Assembly: GCA_963763815.1 (NCBI GenBank)
Contig: CAVXPS010000019.1
Span: forward strand, 15,713-79,712
DNA length: 64,000 nt
Reading direction: 5' to 3'
DNA from: an uncultured Actinomycetes bacterium
GTDB taxonomy: Bacteria; Actinomycetota; Thermoleophilia; Gaiellales; Gaiellaceae
Part shown: positions 10,806 through 58,265 of the stretch, piece by piece
How positions within the stretch are numbered: the stretch's first letter is position 1
Layout of the letters: each line of letters starts with the position of its first letter
The notes under the pieces: generated by a model
What the model was told of the DNA's origin: nothing
The model's input: the letters and a program-made list of their open reading frames with translations, nothing else
Database searches by the model: none
Translations under genes and position numbers: made by a program

Positions 10806-12733
10806 TCGTCCGGCAACCGGTACAGCGCGAACCTCCCGTCGCCATGGAGACGTTCGAGGCCCTCGACGGGCCGCCGCTGCCGCGTGCGATCCACGACGAG
10901 GTACTCGGCGCCGTACGCCTCCGGAATCGAGAGATCGGCGGTGCCGAGGAAGCGCCGCGCGTCCCGCGCGCGCTCGTACGGGCGGTTCTCCGGCGTGTCC
11001 GCGACGTGCCCGGGCGGGGCGACGGCGATGTACACCGGCGCGAACGCCGCCATGCGAAAGCTCGTCTCGGGATCCGAGTAGACGACGGCTCCCGGAGCCA
11101 CCTGCGTCCGAAGTGCCTCGACGAGCCCGGGCGAGAGCTGCGTCCCAGCGCGGACGTCCACCGGAGTCCAGCGCGCAAGGCCGACGACGACGACCGGCAG
11201 CAGGAACAGCGTCGCCGCCAGCGCGGCGTTCGCCTCGAGCGGCGGGCCCCTGCGAACGAGGCCCACGACGAGGCCGGCGGCACCCGCGACCACGGCTACC
11301 CAGACGAGCCAGGACGGAGCGCCCTCGTCGAGCGCGTAGTCGAAGTCGCCGGGGAAGAGGGCCTGGAAGACGACACCCGCGATCAGCGCGAGCGGCGGGA
11401 GGAAGGGCCCCAGGAGTCGCGAGAGCACGCCGAGCCCGCCCGCGAACGCGAATGCGAACGGCAGGAACCCCGCCGCCCGCCGCGCCTGCGAGATCGAGAC
11501 GAGGTCGGCGAGCGACGTGAAGAGAGCAGGGATGAGCATCACCGCGAGCACCGCCAGCGACCCGCCGCTGACGTAGGCGGCCCACCTCCGGCGTGCGGCC
11601 AGGGCCGCGAGCGGGAAGAGCAGGACCGCCGCGACCGCGACCGCCCCGCTCCGCGTGAACACCTCCGCCTGCAGGCTGTAGCTCGTCTCGGAGCGGACGT
11701 CGAGCTGGCCGACGTAGTGCGTGAGCGCACGCCGGACCTCGTCGGCGTCGGGCGACACCGACGCCGTGTCGGTGACGATCGGGATCAGCCAGACCATGAA
11801 CAGCGCCGCCGGGACCGCCAGCGCCGCGAGCGCGGCAGCGCCCGCGCGCAGGTCGCGCCGCGTCCAGAGAAGTCGCACGAGCAGGAACCCGACGAACGGC
11901 AGCCAGAGGAAGATCGCGTACGTCGGATGCACGACCGCGAGGACGAAGCCGGCGGCCGCCGTCGACGACCAGAGCGGCAGAGACGGGCGGCGGAGCGACT
12001 CGAAGGCGAGCGCCAGCGCAGCCGGCACGAGCAGCTGCCGCGAAGACGTCGCCGGCAGCGCAAGCAGCGTGTACGTGCCTCCGTGCCCCGGTGCGAAGCA
12101 GATGATCCCCGCACTCGCTGCGGCGACCGCCCCGGCAGCCCACGTTCTCCGGAACAGCGCCCAGCCGGCTTCGTAGGCGACGACGAGGGCGAGGATCGCG
12201 AGGATCGACGGGAGGTGGACGACGACCTCCTCCGGGTCGGTGCCCGAGACCCTGGCGATGAGCGCGAGAAACCCGTGCCAGAGCGGGAACGCGTATCCGG
12301 GATGCAGGCTCCCGTCCACGAACTCGGAGACGCGGTCGAGGGACAGGTCGTCGAGCTCCAGCAGCTTGCGCGTGCGCGCCAGGTGGAAGAGGCCGTCGCC
12401 TTCGACGTCTCTCGCGACGCGCCAGAGCAGGATCCCGAGGACGACTCCTACGCCGTAGACCCACCCGACCCCGGGCACGCGGGGCGCCACCGGGGCGCGC
12501 GCGATGACGAGCACGAGCGCCGCGACCGCCGCCAGGGCGAGGAGCACGATCGTCGTCGTCAGCGTCGCGGCGAGCAGAAACGTGACGGCGAGCGCGCCGA
12601 ACACGAGGGTCAGCGACCACGCGAGCGTCGCCGCGGCGCCACGAACGCCCAGCGCCCGGGCGAGCAGCCAGCCCGGCGCCAGCACGACGGCCGTCCCTCC
12701 CGCGAGGCGGAGATAGAGCGTGACAGCACTCAC
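10802..12733 (-). CDS. Large polytopic membrane protein, putative GT-C-type glycosyltransferase with a C-terminal extracytoplasmic domain
   Basis: About 14 hydrophobic segments (LAWSLTLVFGALAVTFLL..., HPGYAFPLWHGFLALIARV...) followed by a soluble tail. GTG 12733 is the preferred start. An in-frame ATG at 12886 would add 51 aa encoded by repeat copy A. The family call is an inference from topology and context. Confidence 0.65.
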   Translation of the reverse strand: MSAVTLYLRLAGGTAVVLAPGWLLARALGVRGAAATLAWSLTLVFGALAVTFLLAATLTTTIVLLALAAVAALVLVIARAPVAPRVPGVGWVYGVGVVLGILLWRVARDVEGDGLFHLARTRKLLELDDLSLDRVSEFVDGSLHPGYAFPLWHGFLALIARVSGTDPEEVVVHLPSILAILALVVAYEAGWALFRRTWAAGAVAAASAGIICFAPGHGGTYTLLALPATSSRQLLVPAALALAFESLRRPSLPLWSSTAAAGFVLAVVHPTYAIFLWLPFVGFLLVRLLWTRRDLRAGAAALAALAVPAALFMVWLIPIVTDTASVSPDADEVRRALTHYVGQLDVRSETSYSLQAEVFTRSGAVAVAAVLLFPLAALAARRRWAAYVSGGSLAVLAVMLIPALFTSLADLVSISQARRAAGFLPFAFAFAGGLGVLSRLLGPFLPPLALIAGVVFQALFPGDFDYALDEGAPSWLVWVAVVAGAAGLVVGLVRRGPPLEANAALAATLFLLPVVVVGLARWTPVDVRAGTQLSPGLVEALRTQVAPGAVVYSDPETSFRMAAFAPVYIAVAPPGHVADTPENRPYERARDARRFLGTADLSIPEAYGAEYLVVDRTRQRRPVEGLERLHGDGRFALYRLPDD

Positions 12734-12886
12734 GGGCCGGATTCCGGCCCGTGGGTGGGGAGGGGTGTGGGAAGAAGGGGGCACGCTCTCGCAAGACCGG
12801 AGTTCGCTCGCGCGAACTCCGGTCGCGGAAAGGCTGGGGAAACATGGTTCCCCCACGAGAGCGAGCCGAAGGCGAGCGATGCTCAT
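12731..12886 (-). repeat. Intercistronic multi-hairpin repeat, copy A (degenerate, hairpin-1 module deleted)
   Basis: Fills the gap from the GT2 stop (12883-12885) to the membrane-protein GTG (12733). It shares the blocks GCGAGC..., GGGGAAACATGGTTCCCC, ACCGGAGTTCGC-tcgc-GCGAACTCCGGT (12796..12823) and GGAAGAAGGGGG...GGTGTGGG with copies B and C. It ends in the palindrome CACGGGCCGGA-t-TCCGGCCCGTG (12731..12753), which contains the start codon. Confidence 0.8.
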
Positions 12887-13779: not shown

Positions 13780-14743
13780 GCTCCGCCTGCGGGCTCGATC
13801 CGCGGCGCAGACCGTTCCGCACGAGCACCACGCCGCCCGGCACGGCGAGGACGACCGTGACGAGGAAGAAGAGGAACCCGGCCGCGAACGCCTGCTCCGC
13901 GGGCACGTCGAGGCTGCCGAGGAAGCTGACGAAGAACGCTTCGCGCACCGCGATCCCGTTCAGCGTGAACGGCACGAGCATGACGAGGAAGAGCAGCGGC
14001 CCCATCACGTAGTAGACCTCGACGCCGAGCTCGATCCCCACCGCGCGCGCACACGCCCAGATGGCGAGGATGCGGATCGTCTGTACGGCGAGCGTGACGA
14101 GCAGGACCGCGGAGAGCACGCGCGGACGGCCGCGGAAGTGGTGGACGCCCTCGTAGAACGCCTGCAGCGGCCTCGCCAGCCGCAGGCGCTCGAGCAGCGG
14201 CAGGAGGCGGCGCAGGAGCGGGCGGGCCGAACGGGCGAAGAACAGGAAGCCGACGACGATCGTCCCGAAGACGAATACGCCCTCGAGCCAGAGGTACGCG
14301 CTCACGTCGTAGCGCCCGATCGAGAGCAGGAACCCGATCGCGCCGAGGAACACCGTCACCGCGCCTCCCAGGCCGCGCTCGAGCAGCACCGTTCCCGTCA
14401 CGTCCGCGGTCCGCCCCGGGTGGCGTCGCACGGTGTCCACCACCCGCACGGCATCTCCGCCGAGCGACGTCGGCAGCACCTGCCCCGCCGCGTACGCGAC
14501 GAAGTACGCCCGCGTGAGCCACGGCAGCCGCTCGACGATCCCGTGCGCCCGGAGGAGCCAGCCCCAGCGCATGGCCAGCACAGGCACGGTCAGGACCATG
14601 ATCGCGACCGCGAGCGCGAACCACGCGAGATCCGTCTCCTCGAGCACGTCGAGCGTCGTCCCGAGCTCGATCTTCCAGACGAGGTACGCGACCGCCCCCG
14701 TCGTCAGGAGCAGCGTCCCGACGACCCGGACGCGCCGGCTCAT
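13772..14743 (-). CDS. Flippase-like membrane protein (lysylphosphatidylglycerol synthase TM region / UPF0104 family)
   Basis: Starts MSRRVRVVGTLLL and has about 8 TM segments. The motifs RWGWLLRAHGI, AGQVLPTSLGGDAVRV and LNGIAVREAFFV resemble UPF0104. I trimmed the start to ATG 14743. It overlaps the GT2 start by 8 nt. Confidence 0.78.
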   Translation of the reverse strand: MSRRVRVVGTLLLTTGAVAYLVWKIELGTTLDVLEETDLAWFALAVAIMVLTVPVLAMRWGWLLRAHGIVERLPWLTRAYFVAYAAGQVLPTSLGGDAVRVVDTVRRHPGRTADVTGTVLLERGLGGAVTVFLGAIGFLLSIGRYDVSAYLWLEGVFVFGTIVVGFLFFARSARPLLRRLLPLLERLRLARPLQAFYEGVHHFRGRPRVLSAVLLVTLAVQTIRILAIWACARAVGIELGVEVYYVMGPLLFLVMLVPFTLNGIAVREAFFVSFLGSLDVPAEQAFAAGFLFFLVTVVLAVPGGVVLVRNGLRRGSSPQAEHG

Positions 14744-14931
14744 GGGCGACCTTCTCGCCCATGAGCGGGGAAGGGTGTGGGGAACCGGGAGGTTCCCCAC
14801 GCTCTCGGGAAGAAGGGGGCAGACTCAGCTCTCGCAAGACCGGAGTTCGCTTGCGCGAACTCCGGTCGCAGAAAGGCATGGGGAAACATGGTTTCCCCCA
14901 TCAACGCGAGCCACAGGCGAGCGTTGGTCAT
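14739..14931 (-). repeat. Intercistronic multi-hairpin repeat, copy B (full length)
   Basis: Fills the gap from the agmatinase stop to the UPF0104 start. Hairpins lie at 14880..14898 (GGGGAAAC-atg-GTTTCCCC), 14839..14866 (12-bp stem), 14779..14798 (GGGGAACC-ggga-GGTTCCCC) and 14739..14765 (CTCATGGGCGA-ccttc-TCGCCCATGAG, containing the start codon). It encodes a 63-codon mini-ORF (14740..14931) with ATGA overlaps at both ends. Confidence 0.85.
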
Positions 14932-20234: not shown

Positions 20235-21296
20235 TCACAAGCTGGTCAAGACCGACGCGACACGATCGAGATCCGAGTCGGTCAGCCGGGAGTGGAACGG
20301 CAGCGCGAGCGCGCGCTCGAAGGCGCGGTCGGCTCCGGGGAAGGGTCCCTGGGACGAGTATGCGCCCAGGCGGTGGAGCGCCCAGGTCCCGATCTGCGCC
20401 TCGATTCCGGCCGACCGGAGAGCCTCGAGCGCCTCGTCCCGCCGGTCGAGCTGGACGACGTAGGCCTGCCAGCCGTGGCGGTCTCCCTCGGCCGCACGGG
20501 GCGTCTGAACGAAGTGCTCCAGTCGCTCCGTGTAGCCCCGCGCGACACGCTCGCGGGCCTCGAGCAGGCGCCCGAGACTCTCGACCTGGGGGATCCCGAG
20601 CGCGCAGAGGACATCCGGCAGCCGGTAGTTGAAGCCGGGCGCGGGCATGTCGCCGACCGACGCCCACCCGTGGTGGCGGAGCCGGCGCACGGCCGCATCG
20701 AGCCCTGCATCGTCCGTCGTGACTGCGCCGCCTTCGCCTGTGGTCACGATCTTCCGCGGGTGGAACGAGAAGCAGGCGAGCGCGCCGAGCGCGCCACACG
20801 GCGTCCCCCGGTACAGCGCGCCGAGCGCGCCGGCCGCATCCTCGAGCAGCGCGACCTCCTGCGGCACGGCGGTCTGAAGCGCCTCCCACTCGACCGGGCG
20901 CCCGAAGAGGTGCACGGCGATGACCGCCTTCGTGCGCGGGGTGACCGCCTCGGCCACCTTCGCCGGGTCGAGGTTGAACGTGTCCGGATCGACGTCCACG
21001 AGCACGGCCCGGGCGCCGGAGAGCTCGACGACGTTGGCGGTCGCCGGGAACGTGTACGCGGGGACGATCACCTCGTCGCCCGGGCCGATCTCGAGCGCGA
21101 GCACGGCGAGGTGGAGCGCAGCGGTGCCCGAAGAGACGACCGCTGCGTGCGTGGTGCCGACGGCGCCGGCGATCGCCCGCTCGAACTCGCCGACCTTGTT
21201 CCCCATCGTCAGCTGTCCGCTCGCGACCACCTCCGCCACCGCGGCGAGCTCCTGCTCACCGACGTCGGGTCGAGCCAGCCGGATGGGCTCGCTCAA
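20235..21296 (-). CDS. DegT/DnrJ/EryC1/StrS family sugar aminotransferase
   Basis: The C-terminal 353 aa of track ORF 20235..22268: [17 protein letters not shown]..., [38 protein letters not shown]. The proposed start is TTG 21296, overlapping the epimerase stop. Confidence 0.87.
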
Positions 21297-41277: not shown

Positions 41278-41955
41278 TCAGGCGAGATCGAGGCCACGCA
41301 CGAGGACGAACGGCTCCGCGTGCTCGCGGCCGCAGGTAGTGCCGTGGAGCTCGGCGGCCGCCCGAATCGCACGCTCGCTGCGCGGGTGCGGATAGGGCCG
41401 CTGCTCGGTCTCGTAGTGCCCGAATGCCGCAAGCTTCCGCTCGAGCGTCGACGAGACGTCGACGTACCAGTTCGGGACGAACCAGTTGACCGGCGCGGGC
41501 GTCCACTCGGTGCTGGACGTCGGCGCGTACGTGAGCAGACGACGGACGGTCTGGCCGGGCAGCGGACGCGTCGCGACGGCGACGGAGTCGAAGAGCGCGC
41601 GGTGATCGCGGTTCACGTCCGGCTGCGGCGTGTAGACGACGGCAGGCTGGAACTCGCGCGCCTGCTCCTCGACGACGCGGTTGACCTCGACGTGCGCAAG
41701 CGTGTCGAGCCGCATGTCCGGTAGATCGAGGTGGACGTAGTCCTCCACACCGAGCTCGGCGGCGGCGCGGCGCGCCTCACCCTCCTTCTGCGCGCGCTTC
41801 TCCGCATCGCCCGGGTACTGGGTCGAGCTGCCGTCGGTCACGCACACGATCCGGACCGCGTCGCCGCGTTCGACCGCGTGCACGGCGATCGTCCCTCCCA
41901 TCCCGAGCACCTCGTCGTCGGGATGCGCCGCGAATACGAGGACGCGTTGGCTCAT
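41278..41955 (-). CDS. PIG-L family deacetylase
   Basis: Reads MSQRVLVFAAHPDDEVLGMGGT...VTDG...NRDH. I trimmed the start to ATG 41955. Confidence 0.88.
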   Translation of the reverse strand: MSQRVLVFAAHPDDEVLGMGGTIAVHAVERGDAVRIVCVTDGSSTQYPGDAEKRAQKEGEARRAAAELGVEDYVHLDLPDMRLDTLAHVEVNRVVEEQAREFQPAVVYTPQPDVNRDHRALFDSVAVATRPLPGQTVRRLLTYAPTSSTEWTPAPVNWFVPNWYVDVSSTLERKLAAFGHYETEQRPYPHPRSERAIRAAAELHGTTCGREHAEPFVLVRGLDLA

Positions 41956-42146
41956 CGGGCGACCTTGGTCGGCCGATGAGCGTGGAGGGGTGTGGGGAAC
42001 CGGGAGGTTCCCCACGCTTTCAGGAAGAAGGGGGCAGACTCAGCTCTCGCAAGACCGGAGTTCGCTTGCGCGAACTCCGGTCGCAGAAAGGCATGGGGAA
42101 ACATGGTTTCCCCCACCAACGCGAGCCGGAGGCGAGCGTGGCTCAT
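41950..42146 (-). repeat. Intercistronic multi-hairpin repeat, copy C (full length, archetype)
   Basis: Fills the gap from the formyltransferase stop to the PIG-L start. Hairpins lie at 42095..42113, 42054..42081 (ACCGGAGTTCGC-ttgc-GCGAACTCCGGT), 41994..42013 and 41950..41981 (containing the start codon). The 64-aa mini-ORF 41952..42146 has ATGA overlaps at both ends. By my manual alignment the core differs from copy B at only 2 positions over about 125 nt. Confidence 0.85.
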
Positions 42147-43033
42147 CCGAGCCTCGCTCCCACGGCGAGCTGGCCCGCGGTCTCGATCTCCTCGAGCAGG
42201 AGCGCGCCCTCACCGCAGGCGACGACCGGACCCTCCGCGTGCTCCGCGACGATCGTGCCGGCCGGCGCGTTCTCGGCGTCCTCGACGGGGCGCGCGCGCC
42301 AGACGACGACCTTCTCCTCGCCGAGGTACGTGAAGGCGCCGGGATAGGGCCGGGTCTGGGCGCGGACCCAGTCGTAGAGGTACGGCGCGCGCGTCTCCCA
42401 GTCGATGATGCCGTCTGCCGGCCGGCGACGGTGCCAGGAGCTCGCCCGCAGCGGATCCTGGGGAATACGCGGAGCCGTGCCGGCGACGATCTGCGGCACG
42501 TACTCGCGGATCAGGTCGAGGTGCGCAGCGGCGAGGCGCTCGAAGAGCGTGGTCGCCGTGTCGTCCGGCTCGATCGCGACCACCGCCTGTCCGACGATCG
42601 CACCGGAGTCGGCCGTCTCGTCGACGATCTCGAACAGCGTGACGCCCGTTCGCGCCAGGCCCGACAGCAGCGCCCACGGGATCGACGCGCGGCCGCGGTG
42701 TCGGGGGAGCAGCGTCGGGTGCATCCCGAACACGCCCTCGTGCGCGGCTGCGATGAACGGGTCGCGAACGAGCTGGTACCAGCCGACGACGAACACGAGC
42801 TCGGGATCGAGCTTGCGCAGCGCGTTCAGCGTCAGCTCCGAGTTGACGTCGTTCGTCTCGATGTAGTCCGCGCCGAACTCTCCCGCGACGTCGTCGAAGC
42901 GGCATCGGGCGGAGCGATCGATGGACGCGGTCTCCGGAAGCGTGACGACGCCGACGATCTCCGCCCCCGATTCTGCGGCGGCGACCAGGCAGTCGCGGCC
43001 GATGATGTCGTCGCTGACCCAGACCGTGCGCAT
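42143..43033 (-). CDS. Formyltransferase (Fmt/ArnA N-terminal-like; sugar N-formyltransferase candidate)
   Basis: 296 aa with VVGWYQLV, HPTLLPRHRGRASIPWAL (the SLLP/HxSLLPxxRG-type motif) and a C-terminal Fmt-like beta-barrel. Confidence 0.87.
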   Translation of the reverse strand: MRTVWVSDDIIGRDCLVAAAESGAEIVGVVTLPETASIDRSARCRFDDVAGEFGADYIETNDVNSELTLNALRKLDPELVFVVGWYQLVRDPFIAAAHEGVFGMHPTLLPRHRGRASIPWALLSGLARTGVTLFEIVDETADSGAIVGQAVVAIEPDDTATTLFERLAAAHLDLIREYVPQIVAGTAPRIPQDPLRASSWHRRRPADGIIDWETRAPYLYDWVRAQTRPYPGAFTYLGEEKVVVWRARPVEDAENAPAGTIVAEHAEGPVVACGEGALLLEEIETAGQLAVGARLG

Positions 43034-57170: not shown

Positions 57171-58265
57171 TCACGACGCTGGGACCCGCGTCATAGCCAG
57201 CACGGTCTCGACGACCCGCTCCTGCTGCTCGGCGCTGATGCCCGCCCAGAGCGGGACGGAGAAGTTCTCCTTCGCGGCCCGCTCGGTCTCCGGGAAGTCG
57301 CCCTCCGAGTAGCCGAGATACCGCAGCGCCGGCTGGAGATGGAGCGGCGGCTCGTAGTAGTCGGCGCTCGCGATCCCGACCTCGCCGAGTGCTGCCCGGA
57401 TCTCGTCGCGGTGCGGCGAGCGGGAGACGAAGAGGTGGTAGACGTGGCCGGGCTCGTCCGCCGGCACGTCGCACGCCTCGCCGAGGCCGAGCTCGCGGTA
57501 GCGGCCGGCGGCCTCGCGACGAAGCGCCGTCCAGCCGTCGAGCTCGCGGAGGAAGATCCGCAGCGCGGCGGCCTGGATCTCGTCGAGACGCGAGTTCGTG
57601 CCGACGTACTCGAAGATGCGCTTCGACTTCGAGCCGTGGAAGCGCAGCAGGCGGACGCGCTCGGCCAGCTCCGGGTCGCTCGAGGCGACGAGACCGCCGT
57701 CGCCGAGCCCGAAGAGGTTCTTCGTCGGGTAGAAGCTGAAGGTCGAGGCGACGCCGGCACCCGCGATGTCGGGCGAGCCGAACGCCTGGGCGGCGTCCTC
57801 GATCAGCGGCAGCCCGAGCTTGGAGAGCTCGGCGAGAGGTGCCGGGCGCCCGAACAGGTGCACGGGCACGATCGCCTTCGTCCGAGGCGTGATCTTCTCG
57901 GCGACGCGGTCGGGATCGAGGTTCAACGTCTGCGGGTCGATGTCCGCGAAGACGGGGGTCGCGCCCACGCGGGCGATCGCCTCTGCCGTCGCGTAGAACG
58001 TGAAGGCGGGGCAGATGACCTCGGCGCCGGGGCCGATCTCGAGTGCGTTCAGCACGAGCACGATCGCGTCCGTCCCGTTGGCGACGCCGATCGTCTCGCG
58101 AACGCCGAGATAGCGCGCTGCCTCCTCCTCGAACGCGCTGACGTTCGGGCCGAACACGAACTGGCCGTTCTCGAGCACGTCGTCGATCGCCTGCCGGATC
58201 TGCGGGAGGAGGGGCGCGTACTGCGCCTTGACGTCGACGAGCGGGATCGGGGCGCGGGCGGTCAC
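57171..58265 (-). CDS. DegT/DnrJ/EryC1/StrS family sugar aminotransferase
   Basis: 364 aa with IPLVDVKAQY, ANGTDAIVL, VICPAFTFYATAEA, FSFYPTKNLG and HLFV. Confidence 0.9.
   Translation of the reverse strand: MTARAPIPLVDVKAQYAPLLPQIRQAIDDVLENGQFVFGPNVSAFEEEAARYLGVRETIGVANGTDAIVLVLNALEIGPGAEVICPAFTFYATAEAIARVGATPVFADIDPQTLNLDPDRVAEKITPRTKAIVPVHLFGRPAPLAELSKLGLPLIEDAAQAFGSPDIAGAGVASTFSFYPTKNLFGLGDGGLVASSDPELAERVRLLRFHGSKSKRIFEYVGTNSRLDEIQAAALRIFLRELDGWTALRREAAGRYRELGLGEACDVPADEPGHVYHLFVSRSPHRDEIRAALGEVGIASADYYEPPLHLQPALRYLGYSEGDFPETERAAKENFSVPLWAGISAEQQERVVETVLAMTRVPAS

Follow-up and report, generated by a model that had tools for sequence, protein, structure and literature searches.

In 64,000 nucleotides of DNA from an uncultured Actinomycetes bacterium of the family Gaiellaceae (contig CAVXPS010000019.1, positions 15,713 to 79,712; the whole stretch is called the window here), the start codon of a PIG-L deacetylase gene lies within a hairpin at 41950-41981 on the minus strand. 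Judged by comparison with related sequences, this terminal hairpin (HT) is the 3'-terminal stem-loop of a nonautonomous mobile repeat of the Gaiellaceae and related Thermoleophilia. The repeat is ~182 nt long plus a duplicated hexamer (~190 nt) and contains five hairpins, H0, H1, H2, H3, and HT. We consider it probable (roughly 0.7) that the repeat is an intercistronic mobile element like the interspersed repetitive units of mycobacteria (MIRUs), with an internal open reading frame (ORF), here called the relay ORF, that would carry ribosomes through a hairpin occluding the downstream start codon.

Three copies of the element, A, B, and C, lie on the minus strand of the window (Table 1). An earlier, sequence-only reading had taken their hairpins for three different sequences with one architecture. 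A repeat search and alignment showed that they are homologous, the 3' ends of copies of one ~160-195 nt element. Copies B and C are 90% identical, the copies are 83 to 90% identical over ~160-190 nt upstream of the hairpins, and copy A lacks 28 nt and has small deletions relative to B and C. The hairpin sequences and coordinates quoted in that reading were correct when the window was reread, the compensatory change between B and C (an extra C matched by an extra G) is present, and all three downstream ORFs begin with (A/G)TG-AG(C/T). The stem of copy B, given as 11 bp, refolds with 12 pairs.

The copy C hairpin consists of a 5' arm (GCTCATCGGCCGAC), which is element sequence, a CAAG loop, and a 3' arm (GTCGCCCGATGAGC) that holds both the PIG-L start codon (ATG, 41955-41953) and the stop codon of the relay ORF (TGA, 41954-41952). 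It is predicted to fold with 13 pairs and one C.C mismatch at -22.4 kcal/mol (z = -5.9; shuffled mean, -7.6), and the predicted probability that the PIG-L start codon is unpaired is 0.000 in a partition-function fold. The hairpin of copy B (14738-14766; loop GAAGG) folds at -23.7 kcal/mol (z = -7.2) and that of copy A (12728-12756) at -22.0 kcal/mol (z = -5.0), with the GTG start codon of its downstream gene (12733-12731) forming the last stem bases of the 3' arm. These stabilities are far beyond chance, as no shuffled sequence was equally stable for any of the three; ordinary NTGA junctions in the window average -9.8 kcal/mol in the same 32-nt frame and are without such hairpins. No U run follows the copy C stem, whose tail is CAACGCGUCC, so that it does not qualify as an intrinsic terminator, and a pattern scan of 41700-42400 found neither terminator-like nor promoter-like sites.

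Further copies were sought with an exact pattern taken from H2, the most conserved internal hairpin, a scan that H2-less copies escape. It returned six true copies in metagenome-assembled genomes of Gaiellaceae/Thermoleophilia and 17 metagenome loci (loci outside the window carry L numbers below), and a profile search yielded 21 full copies at ~18 independent loci. All full copies are co-oriented with the flanking genes and lie at gene junctions, which, from the flanking translations, include hisG-hisD, an extracytoplasmic function (ECF) sigma/anti-sigma pair, dppB-C-D (twice), dnaX-ybaB, the junction upstream of nusB, and rplF-rplR. Each site holds one copy, and tandem arrays were absent among the copies delimited. 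Homologues of PIG-L, L18, and GT2 at 75 to 94% identity are labelled Gaiellaceae, which places the window in this family. A 99.6% identical strain also carries copy C and tells nothing about empty sites.

[quoted passage not shown] In local alignments of 15 copies, the left end and the reverse complement of the right end scored no better than shuffled controls. No transposase domain occurs in the element ORFs, and neither a recombinase partner nor an IS sharing the repeat ends was found among the loci fetched, where an IS110 element was the only IS seen. Rfam gave no window match at the gathering threshold (best subthreshold scores of 16 to 22 bits versus gathering thresholds of 38 to 100), and no prior description of such an element was found in the literature on Gaiella, Thermoleophilia, and Gaiellales. 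Partial matches at L014:3336-3470 and L025:174-308 comprise the H1-H2 part only, in a nonjunction context, which suggests, from these alignments, that H1-H2 modules also occur in other combinations.

Empty and filled versions of the same junction reveal what was inserted. At rplF-rplR, the empty site in L030 and L031 reads GCGC-ATGA-GTGTCATGACG, and the L18 protein begins MSVMTK as in all orthologues; the filled site in L011 reads GCGC[ATGAGC]AACGTTCG...CCCTGCCC[ATGAGC]GTCATGACG. The copy C site is empty in L032, where the PIG-L protein is 88% identical (ggctcggGTGAGTCAACGCG), and in L034 and L036, with 4-nt overlaps, and it is filled in L033 and L006. The copy B site is empty in L038 and L039 (ATGAGT/ATGAGC overlap) and filled in L037, an H2-less orthologue with the same hairpin. 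The copy A site is empty in L037, L038, and L039 (ATGACG; cgATGACGgcggtcacgctg). Every empty site consists simply of overlapping stop and start codons (ATGA/GTGA), and the filled sites are flanked on both sides by a start hexamer (consensus, ATGAGC). The left hexamer retains the TGA of the upstream gene and adds an ATG, and the right hexamer retains the ATG of the downstream gene and adds a TGA. Therefore, the first two codons of the downstream gene, which lie in the 3' arm, are host or duplicated sequence, and the GCTCAT of the 5' arm is the element's own. On the evidence of these aligned sites, the element is shown to insert precisely into NTGA stop/start overlaps of co-oriented genes.

The sequence shared by the two flanks is the hexamer, with a range of 4 to ~10 nt. 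A long target duplication with a host-derived 3' arm was considered and ruled out for most copies, as their flanks share only the hexamer plus or minus 1 to 3 nt; the long shared flanks of L004 (10 nt) and of an unrelated insert in L028 (13 nt) are the exceptions. That insert, also at rplF-rplR (L028:930-1010), is 62 nt long, lies between 13-nt direct repeats (AGCGGGCATGAGC), and contains a separate hairpin, GGAG ahead of its ATG, and an in-frame 22-codon relay ORF. By these features, it may represent a second family using the same strategy. At the same junction in L029 (950-1010), a 47-nt miniature of the repeat consists of the 5' 19 nt and the terminal hairpin and contains a 16-codon relay ORF.

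The sequence-only reading had staked its case on other genomic copies also having a helix with a start codon. The full architecture, in which the 3' arm includes the start codon, the loop is Shine-Dalgarno-like, and the mini-ORF stop overlaps the start, recurs in ~18-20 independent insertions. All 18 independent HTs analyzed have stabilities between -17.6 and -26.5 kcal/mol and include the downstream start in their 3' arms; two further HT variants occur in L012 and L024. Among 12 HTs of equal length, 91% of the cells in the alignment are paired, 6 of the 12 pairs have changed on both sides, and none of 500 shuffles reached the observed covariation score. The element's GCTCAT, together with a variable GC-rich stem, is predicted to pair with the right hexamer and so to bury the downstream start. 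In full-context partition-function folds, the downstream start has a mean predicted probability of being unpaired of 0.11 (median, ~0.003), compared to 0.50 for the relay start. On the sense strand, the HT loops contain 68 purines and 14 pyrimidines and typically include GGAG, AAGG, GAGG, or AGGAGG, Shine-Dalgarno-like motifs 6 to 12 nt before the ATG. Copy C and L006 lie at loci that are collinear over 2.5 kb with 73% identity and are probably orthologous; what separates the two hairpins is a pair of compensatory double changes and the repair of one mismatch. A stable helix that includes the downstream start, which characterizes coupling by RNA unfolding, is thus predicted by thermodynamics, and its covariation is observed.

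In 19 of the 21 copies, the NTG of the left NTGA opens an ORF that closes at the TGA of the right (A/G)TGA; across the family, relay ORFs are 16 to 85 codons long. Because the element is open in the joining frame, one -4 junction becomes two -4 junctions linked by the relay ORF. The start-to-start distance falls into 12 length classes between 47 and 254 nt, nine of which are 2 mod 3 (47, 68, 137, 182, 185, 188, 191, 251, and 254 nt); the three off-frame classes are those of copy A (153), L004 (187), and L006 (190), and the 45-codon H2-less copy in L037 is a tenth in-frame variant. If 188 nt is taken as the founder length, the frame has been kept in 8 of 11 derived classes (binomial P ~0.009, calculated by hand). 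None of the 24 variants contains an in-frame stop. Substitutions are spread over codon positions 1, 2, and 3 (131, 140, and 124, respectively) without codon periodicity, and the relay peptide belongs to no Pfam family. From this substitution pattern, translation of the relay frame, and not the peptide, appears to be preserved; the lack of periodicity indicates that translation would matter and the peptide would not. In L021 (150-190) and its equivalent in L008, the ATG in the terminal hairpin opens a 6-codon ORF only (ATGAGAGCAGGCGTCCCGTGA), which ends in a GTGA overlap with what is probably the true start of a membrane protein and so adds another very short relay.

In the mechanism that we propose, which builds on established coupling models (PMC12548453), a ribosome that ends translation of the upstream gene would reinitiate on the left ATG, where the sequence context upstream is still the native one of the gene that was displaced. 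Passage along the relay ORF would then unwind H0 through H3 and finally HT. The ribosome at the TGA within the 3' arm would prevent the helix from closing, the purines of the loop lying at Shine-Dalgarno distance, and would reinitiate on the overlapping downstream ATG. Free 30S subunits would largely be kept out by the helix of ~-18 to -26 kcal/mol, so that downstream translation would stay coupled to upstream translation. Opening of an occluded start by ribosomes predicts a recurrent architecture, a kept frame, no in-frame stops, no codon periodicity, and a paired start. Since the element lies in preexisting -4 overlaps, the structure would restore a coupling that the insertion otherwise breaks, and by analogy with MIRUs the relay ORF is most simply seen as the feature that lets the element live in operons, including rplF-rplR, with little harm. 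The sequence-only reading had proposed start occlusion that a ribosome on the mini-ORF would melt and, through it, enforced coupling, an interpretation that receives partial support. The comparative geometry is consistent with the first, from which copy A and L006 deviate, and the coupling fits the comparative evidence; the device, however, belongs to a mobile repeat in preexisting overlaps and is not shown to be host-evolved. Its placement of the mini-ORF stop inside the helix holds for copies B and C and fails for copy A.

Several observations weigh against this proposal. The copy A ORF, whose ATG is at 12886, shares the frame of the GTG and continues into the downstream gene, with no stop in the helix, so that the product would be a fusion with a 51-residue N-terminal extension unless initiation occurs at the internal GTG. 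In L006, the hairpin is 25 nt long and the relay frame is lost, and in L004, the stop lies 4 nt past the ATG and there is no upstream gene. These three exceptions indicate that the relay need not run exactly from ATGA to ATGA. An open frame by itself says little, as frame 2, too, is largely free of stops in so GC-rich an element, and the shuffle statistics, among them P ~0.006 for all 15 copies staying open when substitution positions were shuffled, overstate independence because the copies are related. Mismatches leave the AUG partly unpaired in four copies (L010, L011, L017, and L023). Template-switch correction of a DNA quasi-palindrome can also yield compensatory changes without selection on RNA; mismatches were too few for the asymmetry between G.U and A.C, which would separate RNA from DNA selection, to be of use. 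At site A, the hexamers are ATGAGC (left) and GTGAGT (right) versus ATGACG in the relatives, so that a fixed 6-bp target duplication is not proven. Finally, we infer both translation of the relay ORF and occlusion of the start in vivo. As an aside on site A (window 12730-12735), the protein of the relatives begins MTAVTLYL and that of the window V/M-SAVTLYL, and the window hexamers are closer to the element consensus than to the presumed target.

HT could instead serve mobility, as a single-stranded DNA structure for recombination or recognition comparable to repetitive extragenic palindromes (REPs) with their RAYT proteins, the ends of IS200/IS605, or attC sites. What it does to the start codon would then be a side effect neutralized by the relay ORF, with no regulatory gain for the host. 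We take this possibility seriously while doubting it. The element is clearly mobile and site specific, as the empty and filled sites attest, and the GCTCAT of its 5' arm complements the target hexamer. Covariation links the 5' arm with the two hexamers, the left hexamer, arm, and right hexamer reading ATGGGT/ACCCAT/ATGGGT in L004, ATGAGG/CCTCAC/GTGAGG in L013, and GTGAGC/GCTCAC/GTGAGC in L009. The interior of the stem, although hypervariable, is paired in every case, a pattern shared with attC sites; the 47-nt miniature in L029 retains the 5' end and HT only, and the layout of the element (core ... inverse core-variable-core) is that of integron cassettes. Mobility by itself, however, leaves unexplained why the loops are purine rich on the sense strand only and at Shine-Dalgarno distance, which a pure DNA palindrome would not need, and why the hairpin has been kept through compensatory changes at the apparently orthologous, long-resident site shared by copy C and L006. 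Nor was a transposase or recombinase partner found among the loci fetched, the sole transposase being that of an IS110 element that sits within the repeat and is not delimited by the repeat ends. The mobility and translation readings of HT are compatible, and the events at the level of the ribosome would be the same in both.

A further suggestion, which we offer tentatively and regard as rather improbable, is that the element finds stop/start overlaps by complementarity, with the GCTCAT arm pairing with ATGAGC in a folded single strand in the manner of attC or IS200/IS605, and that it acts as a modular landing pad for H2, the H3 module, and IS110 while the relay frame is kept. Pairing guided by GCTCAT would explain why target, left repeat, and guide arm covary in L004, L013, and L009. 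If true, complementarity-guided targeting would define a new class of mobile DNA that homes to operon junctions.

The hairpins might alternatively be barriers in mRNA to 3'-5' exonucleases, or RNase III/E sites, as in REP- and Correia-like elements, giving differential stability within operons, with the overlap of the start codon incidental. Five stable hairpins in ~190 nt would suit such a role, and an effect on transcript stability and processing is known for intercistronic REPs as well as for Correia elements (PMC3184786, PMC10969869). We think it unlikely here, since it leaves unexplained the NTGA-to-NTGA placement, the frame kept across nine length classes, the in-frame 54- and 63-nt modules, and the purine-rich loops of the sense strand, and no terminator-like tail is present.

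It is very unlikely that the mini-ORF encodes a functional small protein (MSNARLRLAFTGETMFPHA...) to which the hairpin is secondary. The peptide looks conserved across copies, and a gene caller annotated a 46-codon version in L033, but the conservation is at the DNA level, with substitutions spread evenly over the codon positions. In copy A, a different frame is used through most of the element, and the 16-, 22-, 45-, and 46-codon variants drop most of the peptide. The missing periodicity, the frameshifted copy A, the deletion variants, and the lack of a Pfam match led us to rule out a functional micropeptide as the relay product. Convergent evolution of three independent regulatory hairpins at unrelated genes, to which the different stem interiors of A, B, and C might point, has almost no probability left and is refuted by the homology of the hairpins as ends of one repeat family and by the empty sites of relatives at all three junctions.

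RNAalifold on 16 copies recovered five helices, of which H0 covaries, H1, H2, and H3 are almost invariant, and HT has many compensatory pairs; the whole element folds at a predicted -121.5 kcal/mol (z = -8.3). Two modules are optional, one of 54 nt (H2 with its flanks) and one of 63 nt (within H3). The H2 module is present in copies B and C of the window and absent from the orthologous copies in L037 (1401-1540) and L033 (1064-1204), respectively, both of which are still in frame and have terminal hairpins identical or nearly so to those of the window copies. As far as these alignments tell, such presence and absence at orthologous copies implies gain or loss of the module or gene conversion between copies within a genome. 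The structured 63-nt module (GTTTCTTGCG...GCATGG) is nested in the H3 loop in L008 (7032-7294), where it is present, and not in L021 (186-385) at the same locus; it also occurs in L003 (2615-2874). With this module, the relay ORF stays open and keeps its frame (85 codons, compared to 64 without the module).

An IS of the IS110 family, ~1.3 kb long and with DEDD_Tnp_IS110 and Transposase_20 domains, lies inside the repeat at the same point and on the opposite strand in two loci, L024 (2725-4000) and L012 (521-1799). The point of insertion is between CCCCCTTCT and TCTTGA, the junctions reading GCCCCCTTCT/...IS...CATCGCATTCT/TCTTGA, and the IS does not share the ends of the repeat. L013 (3929-4128) is the L024 locus without the IS and with the repeat intact. 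Therefore, the repeat is a specific target of the IS, as REPs are for IS110/IS1111, and descent of the repeat from IS110 is ruled out. In L024, the repeat sequence that follows the IS comes from another copy, owing to either rearrangement or chimeric assembly.

The features of the window copies and their flanking genes are listed in Table 1. The 99.6% identical strain (L027) differs by a 1-nt deletion near the end of the formyltransferase gene (GGGCC to GGGC at L027:2780-2790, window ~42172), and its formyltransferase ORF consequently enters the repeat in another frame, with a gene call of 330 instead of 296 amino acids. This could be a real variant or a homopolymer error of long-read sequencing. 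A 235-nt direct repeat in the window (20894-21128 and 57842-58076; 71% identity) is unrelated to the element and probably reflects paralogous coding sequence.

Table 1. Copies of the element in the window, their hairpins and relay ORFs, and the genes that flank copy C
Feature	Window positions	Strand	Details
Copy C with both flanking ATGAGC hexamers	41950..42146	-	nhmmer E = 3e-64; between formyltransferase-family and PIG-L deacetylase genes
Terminal hairpin HT, copy C	41950..41981	-	GCUCAUCGGCCGAC-CAAG-GUCGCCCGAUGAGC; RNAalifold alignment columns 166-197; many compensatory pairs
Hairpin H3, copy C	41994..42013	-	GGGGAACC-TCCC-GGTTCCCC; RNAalifold columns 134-153; site of nested 63-nt module elsewhere
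Hairpin H2, copy C	42048..42085	-	GCGACCGGAGTTCGC-loop-GCGAACTCCGGTC; RNAalifold columns 62-99; part of optional 54-nt module
Hairpin H1, copy C	42095..42113	-	GGGGAAAC-CAT-GTTTCCCC; RNAalifold columns 34-52; sequence nearly invariant
Hairpin H0, copy C	42118..42140	-	AACGC...GCGTT; RNAalifold columns 7-29; directly 3' of the 5' hexamer; compensatory changes in other copies
Relay mini-ORF of copy C, 64 codons	41952..42146	-	ORF reading; ATG 42146-42144 overlaps formyltransferase TGA 42145-42143; TGA overlaps PIG-L ATG
Formyltransferase gene (N and C domains), upstream of copy C	42143..43033	-	Stop overlaps relay-ORF start
PIG-L/LmbE-family deacetylase gene, downstream of copy C	41278..41955	-	MSQRVLVF...; orthologue N termini M(T/S)RVLV
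Copy B	14738..14931	-	Between arginase-family and LPG_synthase_TM membrane-protein genes; hairpin 14738-14766; downstream ATG 14743-14741
Relay ORF of copy B, 63 codons	14740-14931	-	ORF reading
Copy A, shorter variant	12728..12886	-	No H3, 1-nt deletion in H1; between GT2 glycosyltransferase and DUF6541 membrane-protein genes

By description and proposed function, the closest known kind of element is the mycobacterial MIRU. MIRUs (Supply et al. 1997, reviewed in PMC12548453 and PMC3184786) insert at start codons and carry a -4-coupled ORF, for which minimal impact on expression was proposed (PMC12548453), and they have direct repeats of four nucleotides as well as both empty and filled sites (PMC3184786). 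Like them, the Gaiellaceae element is a short noncoding repeat between operon genes of high-GC Actinomycetota, its mobility is implied by empty and filled sites and short direct repeats, and its ORF overlaps the flanking stop and start codons in the -4 configuration proposed to soften insertion through coupling. In functional terms, it is a dispersed intercistronic repeat with a -4-coupled internal ORF (19 of 21 copies; B and C have it and A does not) and with hexamer repeats at filled sites. The two differ in that MIRUs are 40 to 100 bp long, often in tandem as variable-number tandem repeats (VNTRs), and flanked by tetranucleotide repeats, whereas the Gaiellaceae element is ~182 nt long, single at each site, and endowed with five hairpins, nested optional modules, and a duplicated hexamer. 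Neither PMC12548453 nor PMC3184786 describes for MIRUs a terminal hairpin that covaries, buries the start of the downstream gene, and has a Shine-Dalgarno-like loop.

Coupling by RNA unfolding or termination-reinitiation is known for MS2 coat-lysis, f1 VII-IX, and rpmI-rplT (PMC12548453). The likeness lies in the -4 spacing (ATGA), in a downstream start predicted to be sequestered in a helix that the upstream ribosome would open, and in a short ORF that would deliver ribosomes. The Gaiellaceae arrangement differs in being carried by a mobile repeat into many operons and in that the ORF upstream, placed between two real genes, is a relay frame devoid of meaning. MITEs that leave the operons or ORFs they occupy undisrupted include Chunjie of Geobacter, the Rickettsia palindromic elements (RPEs), Correia, ERIC, and BOX (PMC3184786, PMC10969869). 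They too are small, nonautonomous, highly structured, and cotranscribed, some with open frames and some inserting in frame. Neither MIRUs nor coupling is mentioned in a 2024 review of prokaryotic MITEs (PMC10969869). Unlike the Gaiellaceae element, which has no TIRs and targets the stop/start overlap, these MITEs have TIRs and generic target duplications (9 bp in Chunjie), and RPEs fuse into proteins, whereas the Gaiellaceae element bridges two cistrons.

REPs, bacterial interspersed mosaic elements (BIMEs), and attC sites are likewise GC-rich imperfect palindromes in which structure is conserved over sequence, and the core/inverse-core/core topology of the element is cassette-like. As with REPs, the repeat itself is targeted by an IS of the IS110 family. 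The differences are that no RAYT or integrase partner was seen for the element and that REPs are extragenic and do not bridge ORFs. attC sites recombine at GTTRRRY; the hexamer of the element is ATGAGC.

The finding extends the MIRU idea, that a mobile repeat may survive in operons by means of a coupled relay ORF, to a further deeply branching lineage of actinobacteria. For this idea MIRUs are a clear precedent, and the anatomy of the Gaiellaceae element is much clearer than that of MIRUs, with exact empty sites, a covarying hairpin predicted to occlude the start, and in-frame optional modules. Gene callers misannotate the junctions that carry the element, producing spurious small proteins, extended ORFs, and wrong starts. 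With relay ORFs of 16 to 85 codons, including those at the essential rplF-rplR junction, the family provides dozens of natural constructs with which RNA unfolding could be tested against reinitiation.

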